The translations under genes and the position numbers were made by a program. The notes beneath the pieces were generated by a model. The model saw nothing but the letters and a program-made list of their open reading frames with translations. It had not been told where the DNA came from and searched no databases. From the IMG/VR virus record IMGVR_UViG_3300048998_000068, positions 1 through 46,220 of that record: a stretch of 46,220 bases of DNA; one strand, written 5' to 3'. Each line of letters opens with the position of its first letter. Within the stretch, counting starts at the first letter, position 1. Shown here piece by piece: positions 9,737 through 32,556 of the stretch. Source of the stretch: a virus. Lineage: Duplodnaviria; Caudoviricetes.

Positions 9737-10232
9737 GATCGTCGGGATATTTTCGCTTTTGCTCCGCGTCGGTCCAACGCCTTTCGCGCGGACGTTGAAG
9801 CGTCAATAAAATGTTGTCGTAGTTTAAATCCACTTCAACACTTTTTTCGTCGCGGGTAATGTTCGACGTGTTGAACTTTCCGATAAAAGGCGTGTCTGCC
9901 TCAAGTATCGCACCGGAGGAAGACATAAAGCCGAGACTGTAACGACACGTATCCTTTCGCGTTGCGTCCCGCAAAAGCAGCGCCGTGAGCTCGAGCGGCA
10001 CGCCAGTTAGTCGAACCGTTAATCCGCCGGTTCCAAAACTGCTTTCAGAGATTGCCGAATGGCTTTGTAACCAACTATTCCCCAAATAGGTATCTCCGCC
10101 GTAGTCCGCATTTCGATTATGAGACGAAAGCGCAAGAACCGTTGGACCAAACGTTGCGCGGAGCAACCAAACCGGCCGGATTTTTCCGGCGGTCAATTCA
10201 GTAATAAATCCCGGTGAAAGCGTGCGCGACAT
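9645..10232 (-). CDS. Minor tail / tail tip protein (gpL-like)
   Basis: Start MSRTLSPG overlaps the upstream stop (TAATG); TYLGNSWL and RWTDAEQKRKYPDDRGFEYI motifs; synteny. Confidence 0.75.
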   Translation of the reverse strand: MSRTLSPGFITELTAGKIRPVWLLRATFGPTVLALSSHNRNADYGGDTYLGNSWLQSHSAISESSFGTGGLTVRLTGVPLELTALLLRDATRKDTCRYSLGFMSSSGAILEADTPFIGKFNTSNITRDEKSVEVDLNYDNILLTLQRPRERRWTDAEQKRKYPDDRGFEYIPQVAQWSGFWGKPEANKGSGHFGE

Positions 10233-10951
10233 TAAAGAGCTTCCACGGCTGCAAAACTGATTTGATAAATCGGCGTCGATTTGCTTCCAACGATTGTCCA
10301 AAGCTTATTATTGGTCGCAGCAAGTCGAAAGGTTCCACGCGTATTCTGCGTGATAATGGTTTCATTCGTTGCAACATTCGGCCGAATTGACGGCCAAACC
10401 TGCAGCACCGCGAGACCCGCGCTATCGGACGGTGAATTATTAATTGCCTTGTATAACTGACCGGCAATTTCCAACCAATCGCCCACCGCGATAATCGTTG
10501 GAACGTTCGGAACCCAACCAGCGGTATGAATCAAATTTCCATTTTGATTCGTTCCGAAAACTACCGGCGAACCTAAAGCACTTCCGCGCGGATTCGTACC
10601 TAACGGATCGCCTAGTCGAAAAGTATTTTCCGGGCCATTCAGCGCAGAAAGAAACGCGATCCAAGTTTCCGCCCAAATCCTGTCACCTATCGGCGCCAAT
10701 TCCACATCGACAAGCCACCTTTGGCCCGAATAAACCTGTAATTGCTGAACACCGGTATATGGCGATTCGGAAACCGCAGTCCGCACGTCCTGTGAAAATG
10801 TAATTTGGCGCGGCTTCGGAAACGGAGACAAAAAAACGTCAGACGGCAAATCGAGCGGAAACACTAACGGAACAAAGTTTGCCGGAGCTGTCGACGGCGC
10901 CGCGACGCCGCCCTGAAGCAACGAAAGTAAATCTATTATTCCATTGCTCAT
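10232..10951 (-). CDS. Distal tail (Dit)-like minor tail protein with N-terminal extension
   Basis: Directly after the tape measure gene; SESPYTGVQQ, WIAFLSALNG and ISFAAVEAL motifs. Confidence 0.7.
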   Translation of the reverse strand: MSNGIIDLLSLLQGGVAAPSTAPANFVPLVFPLDLPSDVFLSPFPKPRQITFSQDVRTAVSESPYTGVQQLQVYSGQRWLVDVELAPIGDRIWAETWIAFLSALNGPENTFRLGDPLGTNPRGSALGSPVVFGTNQNGNLIHTAGWVPNVPTIIAVGDWLEIAGQLYKAINNSPSDSAGLAVLQVWPSIRPNVATNETIITQNTRGTFRLAATNNKLWTIVGSKSTPIYQISFAAVEAL

Positions 10952-16314: not shown

Positions 16315-16725
16315 TTATATGTCTTCAGTGTGAGTTATTTTAAAATCAATTGCCGTCGTAAAAGTTTGATCAACATCCCAATATATATCAACTTCGCTGG
16401 CTATTTCGACGCCACTTATCGCGTTTGAACCAAAGCCCGGCACGGTCCAAATCCCGTAAAAATTTCGAAGCGCATCCTTTACCGCCTTAGTCAGCGCCGA
16501 AAGACCCTCAACATTTTTTACGCAGCATGTAATCTGAATGCGCGCATCCGGGGAGATATTCCCACCAATCAGCATTTCATCCCGAACGATGGAAACGCCC
16601 TGATAAACAAGCGCCGGAAAAACAGGATTTTGCGGAAGCGTCATCCGGTAAATCCTATCGCCGACTAAAGGCGAAACGCCCGAATCGGTTTTTAAAAAAT
16701 TGACCAATCCATGTTCAAGCGCCAT
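16315..16725 (-). CDS. Tail terminator / tail completion protein (DUF3168-like)
   Basis: LVGDRIY...LPQNPVFPALVY...RIQITC motif; synteny. Confidence 0.8.
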   Translation of the reverse strand: MALEHGLVNFLKTDSGVSPLVGDRIYRMTLPQNPVFPALVYQGVSIVRDEMLIGGNISPDARIQITCCVKNVEGLSALTKAVKDALRNFYGIWTVPGFGSNAISGVEIASEVDIYWDVDQTFTTAIDFKITHTEDI

Positions 16726-17209
16726 ATTTTTTCAAAAGCTTTGGAACTCTTTTTCCGAGAGTAGAGCGGAACACCTCAATCATTCGAGAAACATTTTCTT
16801 CGAAAGCCGGTCGCATAAACGGATGCGGAGAATAATATCCCCATTCGGTGCGCTTTCGATTTCGGCCGGTTATCAAAATAATTTTATGTCCGAACTCAAT
16901 CATATGCGCATAAAAGGCGCCCGCCTTTCGCCCCTTAGAAACCATCACGTATTGGTCAACGGTCCATGGATTAGGATTTCCAGCCTTCCGCGAAACAATC
17001 GCATTTCGCAACTGTCCAGGACTGCGCGATCCTTGATGATATCCGGCAACCTTTCGTCCGACCGGCGCTTTGCTTTTTGCCGCTTCAACCATAATTTTAG
17101 TGCAATTCCGCAACGCTTCCTGAACCGCTTTGTCGCGAATATTGACCGGCAATTGCTCAAGCTGATCGTTAAGTTCCCTAAGCCCTTTAACCTCAATCGT
17201 GAATTCCAT
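16715..17209 (-). CDS. HK97 gp10-like tail component
   Basis: VKGLREL...KAPV...GQLRNAI...FYAHMIEFG...PFMRPAF. Confidence 0.88.
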   Translation of the reverse strand: MEFTIEVKGLRELNDQLEQLPVNIRDKAVQEALRNCTKIMVEAAKSKAPVGRKVAGYHQGSRSPGQLRNAIVSRKAGNPNPWTVDQYVMVSKGRKAGAFYAHMIEFGHKIILITGRNRKRTEWGYYSPHPFMRPAFEENVSRMIEVFRSTLGKRVPKLLKKYGA

Positions 17210-17532
17210 TATGTCAGCGAATCCATTACTTCGGCCGAAATTTCCAACGCGTCGTGTCGACCAATTTCTTTAATGCCAGTCACATCATATTTCTGACCGT
17301 CATATTCGATTTTATGTTTCAACGTAATGTCGTTTCGAAACCAAATCGTAAAACGAGCTCCGCGCGAACCAATTACCCGGTCGGACGCATAACGTTCGTA
17401 ACCCGAAATTTGAACGACCTTTGCCCAAAGATTCGCGATCACAACTTCCGTTCGAATTACTCCGCCAGATGGACCATGCGTTTCCGTGTAAGCCAATAGT
17501 TTGATTTCCCGGTCCAACTGGCCGATATTCAT
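17209..17532 (-). CDS. Head closure / head-tail adaptor (SPP1 gp16-like)
   Basis: MNIGQLDREI...LWAKV...FTIWFRNDI...IEYDGQKYDV. Confidence 0.85.
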   Translation of the reverse strand: MNIGQLDREIKLLAYTETHGPSGGVIRTEVVIANLWAKVVQISGYERYASDRVIGSRGARFTIWFRNDITLKHKIEYDGQKYDVTGIKEIGRHDALEISAEVMDSLT

Positions 17533-18154: not shown

Positions 18155-18592
18155 TTAAACCTCGCTCGCCTGAAGCGCCGTCACGAGCTCGTCACGATTG
18201 GAATTCTCCGCGTCTGGAATATCCCTTTCCTTGGCGAGCTCGCGCAATTCTTCTTCTGGCATGGCTTCGTAATTTTTCGCACCCTGGCCCGGAAGATCCG
18301 TTGTATCGGGCAAAATCGGAGGCCCCGACATAATCGTTTCCACGTTATTTTTTTTCGGCCGCCCTGGCGATTTCGGCTTATCGGTTTGAACTTCAGCCGT
18401 CCGCGCCGGAGGTGTGAACGGCTTGCCGCCAAATAACTTGGCTTCCGATTCCTCGCCGGGCATTACCAAACATTTGGCATTAACTAATCGCTCCGCTTCG
18501 TCTGCCGTTTCGGGCTCATAGAGCGAATCCTTTTCAACAAGCAAACCCGTTTCCCGATTGCGAAACGGCGCAATCACCTTGAACTGTGTCAT
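18155..18592 (-). CDS. Head-associated protein with C-terminal HeH/Rho-N-like motif
   Basis: C-terminal YEAMPEEELRELAKERDI...RDELVTAL; EAERLVNAK motif common in post-capsid genes. Confidence 0.55.
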   Translation of the reverse strand: MTQFKVIAPFRNRETGLLVEKDSLYEPETADEAERLVNAKCLVMPGEESEAKLFGGKPFTPPARTAEVQTDKPKSPGRPKKNNVETIMSGPPILPDTTDLPGQGAKNYEAMPEEELRELAKERDIPDAENSNRDELVTALQASEV

Positions 18593-19207: not shown

Positions 19208-20473
19208 TTATGGAACGTCAAGCACTACGCAAGGCGAAACCGAAAATCCATCTTCATCAACAATCGGAGCGTGCAACCACGAACCGCCATCAACGTTTTT
19301 GAAAATTTTAATGACGGTTTTATTCGACTCGAAATAAACGTGTTCCGACTTCGCAACAAATGGTCCACTTCCGTCTTTAATCATGTAGTAGGAAAAATCT
19401 TGTAACTTCAGATCCCCACGACTACCGAGTGAAGGCGATCGATGATCTTCCAGGAATGGATATCCAAGCAGCGTCGAAGGTTCACCAACGCGCGCATTTT
19501 CTTGCCAAATGTAATGTCCTTCAGGATCCACCATTTTTCGAAGCGCAACTTTGCAACGTGGATTTCCGACCCAAACTTTCCCGGTTCCGTAGGAATGCGA
19601 ATCCATCGCAATGATGTCGTTATAGGAAATGGAATTGGACACTTCCCGGTGAACATCGTAAGCCGCAAGCCCACGCACCGCAAAACCAAGCGGCTTTCCA
19701 ACACCATTACCGAAGTTGAAAGCAACATCTTCCGCCTTGATAATCGCTTGCCGCATTAGCTTTTCAGCGAGCGCAGCACCGGCCCCCCAATTACGCAAAA
19801 GCTTGTCGGTGAAAACGATCGTTGCCGCCATTTCTTTAGGCTCGAGCTTCGTTTCGTTAACCTTGAAATCAACCCGCGGTTTGATTCCACCTTCCTCAAT
19901 CCAAGTAACAGCAACACCGCCGAATAGATCCGCGCTTTGGTCAAGCCCTGGCATGGAAATCGCCGCGTCTGGCGGACTACCGGCCGGAATGACAGTTGCG
20001 CGCGGACGTATAATTGCTTCCTGCGGAGAGACTTGCAGAAAGGTATCCAAAAATTGTTCGGGAATCATAAATCCGCCGGTCGACCCCGAATCTGATCGCA
20101 TGTCACTAGCAGCTTGGAAATGTAGCCGCTGATCGGTCGGATTATGAACAACTGCGCCAAGAAATTCGCCGATATTCTCAAACGACTTTTTGGCTTCAGG
20201 CCCTCGAGCAGCATTGCCCAAACCGGTAGAGCTCGAGCCCGCCGATTGACGATTAGCCACGGTTCCAGTTGATTGCCGGAGCTCCGAACCTAGTGATTCG
20301 TGTTCCTCGAGCACAGCGATTTGCGCACGAATGCCTACAACTTCCGCTTTATATTCTTGGTAAAGTGCTTGATCTTCGGCGGTCAAACCGGCTTCATTAT
20401 CCTTGGCGCCGTCGACAATCGCCTGCATATCGGCGAATTTCGTGGCCAAAAGCTTGCGCAACTTTTCTAGCAT
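19208..20473 (-). CDS. Major capsid protein, HK97 fold with N-terminal delta (scaffold) domain
   Basis: Coiled-coil N-terminus, then GGFMIPEQF, WIEEG, GNGVGKPLG and TLLGYP motifs. Confidence 0.95.
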   Translation of the reverse strand: MLEKLRKLLATKFADMQAIVDGAKDNEAGLTAEDQALYQEYKAEVVGIRAQIAVLEEHESLGSELRQSTGTVANRQSAGSSSTGLGNAARGPEAKKSFENIGEFLGAVVHNPTDQRLHFQAASDMRSDSGSTGGFMIPEQFLDTFLQVSPQEAIIRPRATVIPAGSPPDAAISMPGLDQSADLFGGVAVTWIEEGGIKPRVDFKVNETKLEPKEMAATIVFTDKLLRNWGAGAALAEKLMRQAIIKAEDVAFNFGNGVGKPLGFAVRGLAAYDVHREVSNSISYNDIIAMDSHSYGTGKVWVGNPRCKVALRKMVDPEGHYIWQENARVGEPSTLLGYPFLEDHRSPSLGSRGDLKLQDFSYYMIKDGSGPFVAKSEHVYFESNKTVIKIFKNVDGGSWLHAPIVDEDGFSVSPCVVLDVP

Positions 20474-20490: not shown

Positions 20491-21387
20491 TTATAATTGC
20501 TTCAGTAATTCTAGATCACATTCGAAAACTACAGCTGCCGCTTTGCCGTTCCGGCTTGTAGCGACCCTTTGCCGGACAAGCGTTTCCGCAAAGGTTTCTA
20601 TCCCGTCAACAAGCCCCGCGTTGACGGCTTCCTTTGCGCCAAGCGCGCGCCCCTCGCCAAATCCGCTTTTCACTTCAGAAACGGAGACGCCGCGGTTTCT
20701 GGCAACCGCCTTAACGAAATTATCGTAAGAAATATTTACGTCGGCTTGCCTTGCGGCTAATGCTTCCTCGCTTAACGGTTCGTAAGGATTTCCCTCAACC
20801 TTGTATTTTCCGGCGCTAATTAGCGTGTTTTTAATACCCGCAGCTTCATAAGCTTTCGAATAATCCGTGTGTGTGGAAAATACACCAATTGACCCGGCTA
20901 TTCCGCCCGGCGTAATCATGACGCGATCCGCTGCGGAAGCCACCCAATAGGCTGCAGAGCAGGCCATACTATTCACGCTAGCCAAAATGGGTTTTATACC
21001 GCGCGCTTCGTAAATCTGCGTCGATAATTCTTCAACACCAAAGATAAATCCGCCCGGTGAAGACACGTCCAACACAATACGTTTAACGGTTTCGTCAGCC
21101 AGAGCCATGGCAAACGCTGCGGAATAAACTTCCGTGCTTATTCCGCCCCACCACGACGGCTTTTGAGTGACAATACCCTGAAACGGCAAAACAGCGGTCA
21201 CGGAAGCTTTCGGAGCGCTCGCCGTGCGCCCACTATAAGCAACGTTGAGCGTTTCGTTTGCAGCCTGCGGAACTTCCGTCAATGTTGCAGCGCGCTCGAG
21301 CGTCGCTTTAATGAACACTTCAAAATGACCTTCGATCATGCCGCATGGCGAGCGCAAAAGATGTTCAAGCATGAAATCGTAGATCAT
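20491..21387 (-). CDS. Prohead protease, peptidase S49 (SppA/ClpP-like)
   Basis: LDVSSPGG, ACSAAYWVAS, GSIGV and AGKYK motifs. Confidence 0.93.
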   Translation of the reverse strand: MIYDFMLEHLLRSPCGMIEGHFEVFIKATLERAATLTEVPQAANETLNVAYSGRTASAPKASVTAVLPFQGIVTQKPSWWGGISTEVYSAAFAMALADETVKRIVLDVSSPGGFIFGVEELSTQIYEARGIKPILASVNSMACSAAYWVASAADRVMITPGGIAGSIGVFSTHTDYSKAYEAAGIKNTLISAGKYKVEGNPYEPLSEEALAARQADVNISYDNFVKAVARNRGVSVSEVKSGFGEGRALGAKEAVNAGLVDGIETFAETLVRQRVATSRNGKAAAVVFECDLELLKQL

Positions 21388-24524: not shown

Positions 24525-24992
24525 TCAGTTTTGGACCCGATTGCAGCCGTTCGGAATAACTTTCGATTCAGCGCCAGCTTTCGTTTTGATTGGCTTGTTG
24601 CCTTGTGTCATGTCGAAAAATTCAACTTGCACATTGGATCCGTAATAACAGCCCGGTTGATTCCCGCGAGAAATCGCCCCCCACCCAATGGGTTTTCCAC
24701 TGTAGGGTTTGTCCATCATTTCCAAAACTTTCGCGCTTTTAATTCGAACCTGCACATCTTCCAGATCGACAAGCACAACGACTTTCCCCGTATGTTCGCC
24801 AAGCGGCTTCCAAAGGAACTTTCCGATCGTCCGTGTCGAATATTGGCCGACTTCGACCGGCGTTGCGATCGGAGTCGGCGCCAATGTTGGCGTCGGAGTT
24901 GCCTTTGGCACATCGTTCGTTTGGTTAACTTTATTGCAGGCGATAATCGCCAAGAAGAAAAACACGAAAAGAGCGAACAGAAAGTTTTTCAT
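24525..24992 (-). CDS. Lipoprotein of unknown function
   Basis: MKNFLFALFVFFFLAIIA-C lipobox followed by a PTPT linker and two more Cys. Confidence 0.7.
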   Translation of the reverse strand: MKNFLFALFVFFFLAIIACNKVNQTNDVPKATPTPTLAPTPIATPVEVGQYSTRTIGKFLWKPLGEHTGKVVVLVDLEDVQVRIKSAKVLEMMDKPYSGKPIGWGAISRGNQPGCYYGSNVQVEFFDMTQGNKPIKTKAGAESKVIPNGCNRVQN

Positions 24993-25456
24993 ATCGTTAC
25001 CGTCATTGTAATTTTATCTTCGAATTTCGATCCGTTCGAGCCAAAAGCCAAAATGGTAATCGAATAAGTTTTTCCACTCGTTCCAGCGACAACACGACAA
25101 ACCGAACGTGAGTTTTCGAGAATAAAGCAAGTATCGCTTTCGAGAACATCATTTGTTGCGTCCGCAGAATCGGTTTCATTATAGGCAGAGGCCGACGCGG
25201 AAGATATCTTTTCGCCGAACGGCAATCGTCCGTAATACGAAATTCCGATTGGATATTCTTCAATCGTAGTTTTATCAAACGCGCCGCTTATCGGACTGTC
25301 AGTTGCCACGAATGAATATACCCTGCTTTTAGTGTTAAACACATACAACCGATCGCGAGTCGGAAACGTAATTTTCGGCTTGAACTTCCACGGTGAAGGC
25401 CCGGCAACGCCCCCTTCCAGCAACGAAAGTAAGTCAACGATTCCGCTAGTCGTCAT
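24989..25456 (-). CDS. Probable fibre-adaptor-like beta-sandwich protein
   Basis: C-terminal DK...EEYPIGISY..RL..GEKISSAS...VAGTSGKTYSIT pattern resembles phage fibre-tail adaptor domains (recognition only); N-terminus shared with the Dit-like protein. Confidence 0.5.
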   Translation of the reverse strand: MTTSGIVDLLSLLEGGVAGPSPWKFKPKITFPTRDRLYVFNTKSRVYSFVATDSPISGAFDKTTIEEYPIGISYYGRLPFGEKISSASASAYNETDSADATNDVLESDTCFILENSRSVCRVVAGTSGKTYSITILAFGSNGSKFEDKITMTVTI

Positions 25457-30373: not shown

Positions 30374-30826
30374 TTAATTGCCTAAAAGCAACCGCGGCAT
30401 TTTGCCACTCATATTCTCGAGCTGCGGAAGGATATGATCCGCCAGTGACCTGTTATCCGGCATTATGAAGTGTGCGAGGAATTCTTTTTCGAACGTCGTA
30501 ATTTCCGATTCTACAGCTTCTAATTTCGCTTTGATACAGAGCGCCAGAGCTCGCCAGCGTTGTCGAACGGCTTGTTCGTATGCCGCTTCAGAAGCGTTGT
30601 CGTTTTTCCGTGTTCGTCCCGTTGGCGTTAAATTGAATTCCGGCGATTTCGGATCCGGCATGGGCAAGGTAAAACGAACCGTTCGACCTCGCACGGTAAA
30701 ACCGAGATTGGCACAGTCCGGCGAGCTCGCATAAAAGAAGTGCGAAGCGCCATACCGCTGCAGAATTTTTTCGATTTCACCTCGAGAACGCTCGGACGAA
30801 ACGTCCGTTGTCGCTGCGTATTTCAT
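30374..30826 (-). CDS. Phage hypothetical protein
   Basis: MKYAATTDVSSERSRGEIE..L.RYGA...RQRWRAL.L.IKAKLEAV..FEKEFLAH recalled as a widespread phage family; ATGA overlap at 30826. Confidence 0.75.
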   Translation of the reverse strand: MKYAATTDVSSERSRGEIEKILQRYGASHFFYASSPDCANLGFTVRGRTVRFTLPMPDPKSPEFNLTPTGRTRKNDNASEAAYEQAVRQRWRALALCIKAKLEAVESEITTFEKEFLAHFIMPDNRSLADHILPQLENMSGKMPRLLLGN

Positions 30827-31113
30827 CCTTTGACCTTGGTTAAGTGCGGTTTTGGTTTTTTCTGTGCTGCAGCATATCGAGAATGCAGCGACCAATCTGC
30901 ATTCATCATTGGACTGATATATTGACCAATCATTGTTAAGCGCGCGTGCAGCGTTGCCCCATTGTTGATTATCTTAGTGGCCACGGTTTTAAAGGTGTGT
31001 TCGCCCTCGCCCACGGACATAATGTCGTCCATAGCTTCACCCACAACATTGTGCGCGAGCTCCAACAATTCTTCGAAGGTTAAGGCCGGAAGTTTCTCCG
31101 CGTTAAAATCCAT
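30823..31113 (-). CDS. Hypothetical protein
   Basis: 96 aa, coupled to both neighbours. Confidence 0.55.
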   Translation of the reverse strand: MDFNAEKLPALTFEELLELAHNVVGEAMDDIMSVGEGEHTFKTVATKIINNGATLHARLTMIGQYISPMMNADWSLHSRYAAAQKKPKPHLTKVKG

Positions 31114-31328
31114 TATTTGCCCTTTTTAGTCAGTAAGTTTGCCTGATAACAATCTTCGACCGTCAGATCCTCCGCGCGCTTTCCGGCAAGCTTGATAAGC
31201 GCATCCCAGTACTTCCAAGGTATCCCGCGGTCGCTCCATTGCGATACGGACGACGTGTCCAGCTGGCCTAGCCTGTAGGCGACTTCTTTTCGTCCGCCGC
31301 ATATATCTACTATCTCCCGCACTTTCAT
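31113..31328 (-). CDS. Cro-like HTH transcriptional regulator
   Basis: EIVDICGGRKEVAYRLG..TSSVSQW..RGIP.KYW; first gene of the leftward unit. Confidence 0.8.
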   Translation of the reverse strand: MKVREIVDICGGRKEVAYRLGQLDTSSVSQWSDRGIPWKYWDALIKLAGKRAEDLTVEDCYQANLLTKKGK

Positions 31329-31359
31329 AGTTTTTGTCCATAGATAAAAGTTATTGGTT

Positions 31360-31406
31360 TTTGTGTTGACACAAATCAGACTAAAGATTTACACTCGTTG
31401 AGTCAA
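31360..31406. promoter_or_regulatory. Overlapping divergent sigma70-type promoters with operator-like palindrome
   Basis: Plus strand TTGACA(31366)-18-TACACT(31390); minus strand TTGACT(31406)-17-TAGTCT(31383); palindrome TTTGTGT-TG-ACACAAA at 31360-31375. Confidence 0.6.
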
Positions 31407-31781
31407 GGAAAGAAAAAAGAAGACAGGCCCAAGATTTTGAGCGAGCCAAAGAAATTCGAAAATATTGGCGAGTTTTTACGCACAATAATAAACAACCCCG
31501 AGGATCCGCGTTTGGTAAAAGCACCGCCACTACCGCAACCGGAGGATTTCAGCTTCGTGCAGCTTAGACCGAGAAGGATGCTAATCGAACTGTCGACCTA
31601 CAGAAGACACGAAAAGGATACCGACGAATATTTATATATCGTTTCCCATTTCGGCTATGAATACGAACAACTCATGTCGGGCAAGGCTTATCGCCAAAAT
31701 CCAAATCGAGTCGACCGAATAGCGAAGGAAAAAATCGTTGAAAAGATTAAGCGTGCGGCACGAAGTTGGGAATCAGACTGA
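31398..31781 (+). CDS. Early protein carrying a capsid delta-domain-like segment
   Basis: FENIGEFLRTIINNPEDPRL matches major capsid aa 98-117 (13/20 identical); start may be TTG 31398 or 31437. Confidence 0.7.
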   Translation: MSQGKKKEDRPKILSEPKKFENIGEFLRTIINNPEDPRLVKAPPLPQPEDFSFVQLRPRRMLIELSTYRRHEKDTDEYLYIVSHFGYEYEQLMSGKAYRQNPNRVDRIAKEKIVEKIKRAARSWESD

Positions 31782-32016
31782 ACGATTGCCGGACGAAGAA
31801 TATGACGGACACAATGACGTTTGGACCCTTCGAAGATACTTGGACACGACCATCCACGAAGTCGACGCCGATATTCTTGATATTTATGTCCAGGTTGAAG
31901 CTACCGGCAAAGCGCTTCGCGACAAACCTTCGTTAAAAGATTGGCTAGTTAACCAGCTGAACGAGCAGCTGGAAAAAATCGCAGCGAGAATAAAAGCAGA
32001 AAAATATGACGCATAA
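31738..32016 (+). CDS. Hypothetical protein (start possibly TTG 31786)
   Basis: Coupled ORF in the early operon. Confidence 0.5.
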   Translation: MKRLSVRHEVGNQTERLPDEEYDGHNDVWTLRRYLDTTIHEVDADILDIYVQVEATGKALRDKPSLKDWLVNQLNEQLEKIAARIKAEKYDA

Positions 32017-32242
32017 GCACCATCCGCCCGACGGTTTTGCGCAGAAGTATGAAAGTATCGAAACCTCCCGGAAAGCCAAGTTGATAAAGGAATATCAAGA
32101 GCTAATCGAAATCGATTTGCTGGAAAACTTAGCAAACGAATCACGCAACCGGCGCGACTTTTTAATATTGGAGCTCATCCAGCGGATTTTTGCCGAACTG
32201 GAATCGCTGAAGGCTTGGACAATGCCAAGAGACCCGGATTAA
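32006..32242 (+). CDS. Hypothetical protein
   Basis: 78-aa helical ORF overlapping the upstream stop. Confidence 0.5.
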   Translation: MTHKHHPPDGFAQKYESIETSRKAKLIKEYQELIEIDLLENLANESRNRRDFLILELIQRIFAELESLKAWTMPRDPD

Positions 32243-32244
32243 CG

Positions 32245-32556
32245 ATGACCACCACAACTTTCGATCCGCCGATTCCGCTGGATGAATTTGTCCGCCTCGC
32301 CAAGAAAGGCCCGATCGGCGAAACAATCGACGAATGCATTGCGAGGATTAAAACCACGCCGTTTCCGATGAAGGAGCTCGAGGACGCCACAAACGCATTA
32401 GCCGCAGAGCGATTAAAACTCGAAATCCGCGAAGCATTTACGCAAGCAGGCGCCCTTATCGCTTCAGCTTTTACAGACAAATCCATTAGCGCGGACGAGC
32501 TCCGCGGCATGATAAAAATGCAAACCATTTTCCATAAACAACTTAGATGCAAATGA
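32245..32556 (+). CDS. Hypothetical protein
   Basis: ATG 32245 directly after the upstream stop. Confidence 0.5.
   Translation: MTTTTFDPPIPLDEFVRLAKKGPIGETIDECIARIKTTPFPMKELEDATNALAAERLKLEIREAFTQAGALIASAFTDKSISADELRGMIKMQTIFHKQLRCK

Follow-up and report, generated by a model that had tools for sequence, protein, structure and literature searches.

The locus examined here raises a simple question: why would an apparently early gene of a phage contain a short piece of that phage's own capsid scaffold, joined to a body unlike capsid? The window that was analysed is a stretch of 46,220 bases that constitutes a complete phage genome with direct terminal repeats, and the gene in question is an open reading frame whose longest reading, 127 aa from a TTG codon, occupies 31398..31781 (+), hereafter the orphan. 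The answer that we consider a serious possibility, if short of probable, is that the orphan is an early weapon made from the phage's own scaffold helix, which would either jam the head assembly of rivals or blind a host sensor of that helix.

On its head and tail side, the genome encodes a terminase, a gene in the portal position, an S49-family head maturation protease (20491..21387, −; PF01343 E 8e-38, phrog_53), an HK97-fold major capsid protein with a fused delta domain (421 aa; 19208..20473, −; PF05065 E 6e-33, TIGR01554 E 9e-51, together with fold matches) and tail genes, and on its replication side a primase-polymerase, a Sak4-like annealase, a Cas4-domain exonuclease and a helicase. The orphan ORF lies far away from the head operon, where it opens the rightward unit and diverges from a Cro-like DNA-binding gene (31113..31328, −; NF046037 carph-isopro, 37.5 bits against a cut-off of 38; phrog_8008, E 5e-7). 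The earlier note on this DNA had described this position as the one where a CI repressor would normally sit. The position is as described, first rightward gene opposite the Cro-like gene, but the equivalence with CI holds only as a positional analogy, because no CI repressor was found among the 65 ORFs scanned and no tyrosine integrase in the genome; on the same two grounds, the phage is likely lytic. The sole DNA dataset listed with the genome is a soil metagenome, maybe its own source, in which the region 30800-32300 is free of differences, and no RNA dataset is listed as holding the sequence. In a synteny search, none of the 13 loci of a 150-aa neighbour had another gene of the orphan's region in common.

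Other parts of the genome deserve brief mention. Past the capsid gene, a 145-aa gene (18155-18592, −) ends in a Rho-N-like helix pair (PF07498, below cut-off). The segment 42880-45521 (−) holds a tail-fibre-like gene (496 aa) with internal repeats and a 398-aa orphan, which are separate from the main tail block in the linear order and come after a run of small genes on the circular map. Between the terminase subunits, a 155-aa gene (24989-25456, −) with a weak Gp77-like C-terminus matches, over its N-terminal ~20-30 residues, the N-terminus of the distal tail protein (10232-10951, −). This match comprises 19 identical residues out of 32 (E 4e-5; score 79 against a shuffle maximum of 52), its codons have diverged, and the two N-termini are possibly a common assembly tag.

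The segment at issue in the orphan reproduces, over 20 codons, the 'spoke' helix of the capsid scaffold with its D-[PQ]-R-L cap; it was recognised by identity with the phage's own capsid and by a family profile. The coordinates and sequences given for it previously were correct: 31455-31514 (+), residues 20-39 of the orphan when numbered from TTG31398, aligns without gaps to capsid residues 98-117, at the end of the delta scaffold domain (20182-20123, −), with 13 of 20 residues identical. It had also been proposed that conservation concerns the peptide and not the DNA, and our codon comparison bears this out, since the two segments share only 37 of 60 nucleotides and nine of the 13 identical residues are encoded by different codons. 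Over the 22 codons compared, silent sites are saturated (pS = 1.01), pN is 0.22 and second codon positions are identical in 19 cases. Saturated silent sites with so low a pN exclude a recent DNA duplication, and these values fit either an ancient copy preserved by selection on the protein or mere coincidence, because selecting a match on its protein sequence in itself lowers pN. The hydrophobic face of the helix is retained in the copy (I101, F104 and L105 identical, V108 and V109 replaced by I), and three of its four polar-face positions are changed. Both the phage's own capsid and the orphan deviate from the family 'VRF' by an aliphatic and then a non-aromatic residue, a deviation that is rare among family motifs (2/52 and 4/92). 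The profile match ends just past D-P-R-L and the copy stops at L117, about 8-17 residues ahead of a conserved family junction (an M..GG[FY] stretch) which has no match in the orphan and which, by analogy with HK97 K103/S104, may be the cleavage region.

Farther downstream, the word RPRRMLI of the orphan (31566..31586, +) is collinear with the conserved RPRATVI of the capsid (20008-19988, −), a suggestive resemblance only. The pattern RPRxx[VLI]I is present in 59 of 60 family regions and in none of the 11,844 residues of 42 other phage proteins; nevertheless, windows scoring as high as this word were obtained in 73 of 1500 controls with one block and in 131 of 1500 with two, so that the word is not significant when the free choice of blocks is taken into account; a longer, 60-residue homology to the capsid was likewise rejected for lack of significance. 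The earlier statement that the rest of the ORF is unrelated to capsid thus holds statistically.

What the source segment does in the capsid was approached through an AlphaFold2 model (28 sequences, mean pLDDT 81.7). The model contains helices at 2-25, 32-73 and 101-110, with a coiled coil over 2-73 and disorder at 68-92 and again at 122-132, and between these disordered stretches lie ordered helices at 101-110 and 115-119 (pLDDT 88 and 78). Residues 99-421 superpose on residues 79-382 of HK97 Prohead I (Z 16.3, rmsd 3.5, 249 aligned), and the model from residue 98 on residues 81-394 of the D3 prohead (Z 16.5), where the ranges denote the first and last aligned residues only. The model therefore has the N-terminal coiled coil and the third, docked helix of a delta domain, the latter matched in 8fqk and 9osb from residue 98-99. 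In HK97, S76-S88 is described as a rigid helix of the scaffold; it lies along the inside of the capsomer, packs against the spine helix and keeps the prohead locked until proteolysis at K103/S104 (PMC10275583). Capsid residues 98-110 are accordingly predicted to be a docked scaffold helix. The segment had been assigned to the end of the delta scaffold domain, near the protease cleavage; the first part stands, and the second is refined, in that comparison of the model with HK97 points to the capsid-docking 'spoke' helix and away from the cleavage site itself.

The match itself is strong within this genome. Self-BLASTP with shuffled controls, the check suggested earlier, gave 14 identities over 22 residues with E 2e-7 pairwise, and E 1e-5 when the genome's 620 stop-to-stop frames were all compared; the Smith-Waterman score of 78 was reached by none of 3000 shuffles, whose maximum was 54. 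A family profile was built, without the orphan and without the phage's own capsid, from 64 unique upstream regions of 80 capsid loci that had been chosen by mature-domain patterns only. It scored the orphan at 24.8 bits (E 8.4e-7 for 620 frames), with the next non-capsid frame at 5.6 bits, and matched residues 9-41 of the orphan only. Within the genome, only the capsid and the orphan ORF match the motif profile. Two other family motifs equal the own capsid's match to the copy (13/20), and a test of whether the identities fall on the better conserved family columns was negative, identical columns not being significantly more conserved than mismatched ones (p = 0.41; 52 unique 20-mers, with 8 of the 64 unique regions dropped for want of the core pattern). 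From these comparisons, homology between the orphan segment and the capsid is very probably real.

The orphan has a very restricted distribution. In a search of 5.8 billion proteins, the one match among four candidates was the orphan itself, and phmmer against 1.84 billion representatives likewise retrieved nothing else; homologues were confirmed in none of 44 candidate stretches from viral contigs and none of 596 from metagenome contigs, and none was found in the ESM Atlas with the whole protein or residues 55-127 as query. Pfam, PHROGs, NCBIfam and PADLOC gave no family at a meaningful E, PF05065 and TIGR01554 did not match, and no HTH or S24 domain was matched at E up to 10, the fold model being poor. 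That single-chain model (mean pLDDT 50) has a helical C-terminal half and, at low confidence, a helix at 23-32; a fold search with it returned no match at E <= 0.001. At no more than 127 aa, the orphan does not contain the spine helix, P-domain and A-domain of an HK97 fold.

The motif, in turn, is found mostly in capsids. Searching for short proteins with capsid residues 90-160 yielded no candidate, and a motif-profile search retained four of 2399 candidates, namely the orphan and three capsid N-terminal fragments. With a DNA pattern in viral sequences, 119 of the 120 matches listed, out of about 150 in all, were capsids and one was not; as this pattern was designed from the match itself, its invariant columns are circular. 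A lineage-specific pattern in metagenomes gave three matches, all capsids, and in bacterial genomes 36 of 60 pattern matches were capsid-like and 24 were not. No second copy of the motif was found in the 47 family genomes with a match, nor in 21 further ones (those with a match out of 36), in a search that overlooked two of 16 records in which a family capsid is known, so that weak second copies could escape detection.

Because the capsid core is the one known partner of this helix, we chose a reading in which the orphan mimics its docking. An old piece of the lineage's capsid gene would have been fused to an unrelated tail of 70-90 residues and kept under protein-level selection. Translation would start at TTG31437, placing the helix at the N-terminus, and the protein would be made early, ahead of the phage's own capsid. 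The free helix would then compete with the tethered scaffold helix for the groove formed by spine helix and P-domain, as SaPI CpmB does against the 80alpha scaffold. The target would be a co-infecting relative or a resident prophage; timing and numbers would let the phage's own capsid, which is made late, escape. Such rival targets exist, since family capsids are common in bacterial genomes, as the 36 capsid-like matches indicate. Among the options raised by the earlier note, competition at the capsid is the one most in keeping with the anatomy. Nevertheless, a tethered helix should have the advantage over a free one, which is the weak point of this reading, and the best-matching groove should be that of the phage's own capsid, which also counts against it. 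A predicted complex of orphan residues 14-46 with capsid residues 148-421 scored 0.01, in a run whose controls did not fold, and weighs neither for nor against this reading. We propose only tentatively that a free scaffold-helix mimic binds capsid protein and, acting in the manner of CpmB, disturbs the head assembly of rivals.

A host target for the same peptide is somewhat unlikely. The orphan would here be a decoy, an early protein that presents the scaffold's most conserved peptide to a host sensor of capsid, blocking this sensor before capsid is made. The position of the gene suits such a role, as the first rightward gene of a phage without tyrosine integrase; such a position is a usual one for host-takeover genes. 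The motif is, moreover, a conserved family pattern, and capsid sensors exist, CapRel reportedly being one of them. Thoeris is described as sensing capsid (10.1101/2024.07.29.605636), Avs7/Dsr1 are listed among capsid-sensing defences (10.64898/2026.01.04.697583), and DSAD1 provides a precedent for sensor inhibition. In contrast, Avs7 is described as enveloping the folded A-, P- and E-loop regions, with variable extensions left unbound by Avs sensors (10.64898/2026.01.04.697583), and a 20-mer would not imitate the folded core that Avs7 reads. Also, the literature on capsid sensing, in the portions available to us, names no sensor of the scaffold helix.

Whether the motif is translated depends on the choice of start codon. 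Upstream of the motif, 31366-31406 contains two divergent, overlapping sigma-70-like promoters, and their −35 boxes make up an inverted repeat with a short gap at its centre. The rightward one (TTGACA-18-TACACT, 31366..31395, +; 10/12) is the sole site in 30700-32300, where shuffles give 1.6 on average, so that only its position supports it; the leftward one (TTGACT-17-TAGTCT, 31378..31406, −) was recognised by eye and falls below the scan threshold. No operator-like repeat is prominent in 30800-32300. The start at 31398 given earlier is doubtful, because this TTG lies in promoter-like DNA, 3 nt past the −10 box and inside the spacer of the leftward site, and has no ribosome-binding signal (-0.9). 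The most plausible motif-bearing reading would start instead at TTG31437 (31437..31781, +; 114 aa, with the motif at residues 7-26). This codon has a weak ribosome-binding signal of -3.0 kcal/mol (the 35 reference genes span +1.6 to -9.8), comes after an A-rich stretch about 35 nt past the inferred transcription start, and has the least local structure of the four candidate starts (-2.7 versus -9.3 to -11.5). If the homology is real, translation of the motif is probable.

Two candidate starts with stronger ribosome-binding signals, one at the end of the motif and one past it, would omit it. The motif could then be a relic, a once-translated capsid fragment lying in a 5' leader or in a dispensable extension, with the real protein, of 74 or 67 aa, starting farther downstream. 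The earlier note had named a true start downstream of the motif as a refuting condition, and these signals leave some room for it. GTG31557 has the strongest signal of all candidates (GGAGG, -9.5, 11 nt from the start) and gives a rival reading of 74 aa (31557..31781, +); TTG31512 has a GAGG signal of -5.9. The lower coding score of the motif region points in the same direction (-0.09, against +0.12 for the 3' part of the ORF and 0.07-0.21 for other genes), as does the singleton status of the orphan. Indeed, capsid genes clipped at the motif do occur: a bacterial genome (L286 / G047:C13, about 16350-17374, −) holds a decayed family capsid gene without coiled coil, in which an ATG stands five codons before the same motif and is followed by an in-frame stop after 42 codons and by a later break. 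Nevertheless, the saturated silent sites, the low pN and the identity of second positions argue against an unselected relic of the same age, even if part of this signal is the effect of selecting on the protein match. In addition, the frame runs without interruption from 31344 up to its stop codon, the two strong signals both overlap the P-E-D codons and sit in more structured RNA, and the relic would require about 110-175 nt of leader. An untranslated or dispensable remnant is therefore unlikely.

That an unrelated orphan came to resemble the capsid motif by chance, out of very many windows, must also be weighed. Capsid-versus-rest matches this strong are expected about 2e-5 times per genome, and up to about 4-5 times in 250,000 genome-sized windows, both figures being rough upper bounds. 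The 24 bacterial pattern matches that are not capsids favour chance as well, and a raw score of much the same size, 81, was obtained for an unrelated RecE exonuclease from a large database; random silent sites are expected under chance too. In contrast, the family profile score is far beyond expectation for a single genome, the match shares the reading frame of a long ORF, near its beginning, and stops at the same point as the family motif, the rare residue types of the phage's own lineage are common to orphan and capsid, and a weak collinear second word follows downstream. A coincidental resemblance is thus decidedly unlikely. As a separate observation, two Hymenobacter genes (L273 and L303, 601-659) match the capsid motif pattern within long non-capsid frames, so the pattern can arise in unrelated proteins; the context of these genes may be SusD/RagB-like.

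It is very improbable that the helix is a cargo tag, loading the protein into the procapsid, where the S49 protease would free it for delivery to the next host. The motif would be N-terminal if the start is 31437, the docking groove of HK97 faces the capsid interior, and the T4 proteins Ip1-3 offer a precedent (PMC12373910). However, the orphan gene is remote from the head operon, and protease release, as the earlier note had envisaged it, loses support because the copy breaks off at L117, short of the conserved junction. Finally, it is extremely improbable that the orphan is a fragment of a dead RecE-like exonuclease (DUF3799) on which the capsid likeness is overlaid: residues 10-100 are 24% identical to a Shewanella phage exonuclease VIII (E 0.9), with E 5e-4 pairwise to a close relative of that protein, but this origin is largely refuted because a 14-sequence profile gives 2.6 bits, within the shuffle range (13/1000 as high), and 0.8 bits without its two seed proteins (40/1000), neither a 53%-identical relative nor PF12684 matches, and the aligned positions read RPRR and IELST instead of RPDR and VDLKK.

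The value of this one instance is limited by its being a singleton with an uncertain start. We found no paper in the open-access literature on a phage early gene containing the phage's own scaffold helix. If the orphan is an early weapon, against rivals or against a host sensor, it would be one case of a wider, so far unpublished habit in which conserved capsid peptides are grafted onto early accessory proteins. A mimic of the scaffold helix would also supply a natural probe, 20 residues long, for the checkpoint at Prohead I, where the helix locks the spine helix until proteolysis. If the target is instead in the host, the orphan would point to a sensor of the scaffold helix.

Several known systems help to place these possibilities. 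The first is the source of the peptide. In HK97 gp5, the 'spoke' helix-turn-strand (S76-G97; PDB 8fqk), to which the source segment aligns in our model, is described as the lock on the spine helix and the P-domain of Prohead I (PMC10275583). There, however, the element belongs to the capsid chain itself and undergoes digestion, whereas the orphan's copy is carried by a distinct protein that has neither a coiled coil nor the junction nor an HK97 fold. The T4 proteins Ip1-3, described as injected anti-restriction proteins with an N-terminal packaging signal (PMC12373910), resemble the orphan in being products of small accessory genes with a short N-terminal head-related signal and an unrelated body. 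In contrast, the T4 signal is common to many genes, with packaging and injection shown, while here a single motif-bearing gene is known from its sequence. For the decoy, the model is DSAD1, an accessory protein of a phage that fills the site on a sensor used by a virion protein and is described as inhibiting DSR2 by competing with the tail tube protein (PMC11087589). That case concerns the tail tube, a known sensor and a solved complex, whereas any sensor for the orphan is hypothetical.

The closest parallels come from satellites that rob helper phages, in which scaffold mimicry is known from CpmB and Rcm. SaPI1 CpmB is described as having the RIIK helix-and-hook of the scaffold and competing for the scaffold's site on the capsid (PMC5644958), and Rcm of SaPIpT1028 as likewise a scaffold-mimicking protein that redirects capsid (PMC12409344). 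The orphan is not a member of the CpmB-type proteins: no sequence similarity to CpmB was found, and it has no RIIK, with RIAK at residues 107-110. Furthermore, CpmB is satellite-encoded, shrinks the helper's capsid and copies the C-terminal RIIK hook of a separate scaffold, whereas the orphan belongs to a complete 46-kb phage with its own capsid gene and copies, at its N-terminus, a helix of a fused delta domain. Nevertheless, both are small non-capsid proteins with a copy of the scaffold's capsid-binding helix in the setting of an HK97-fold capsid. As in CpmB, a motif is common to the protein and the scaffold helix, with a structural role that is predicted in the present case and a competition that would follow from it. 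If this is true, the orphan would be a phage-encoded counterpart of satellite CpmB in a lytic phage, and a self-sufficient phage mimicking its own scaffold helix would extend the tactic of satellites to conflict between phages.
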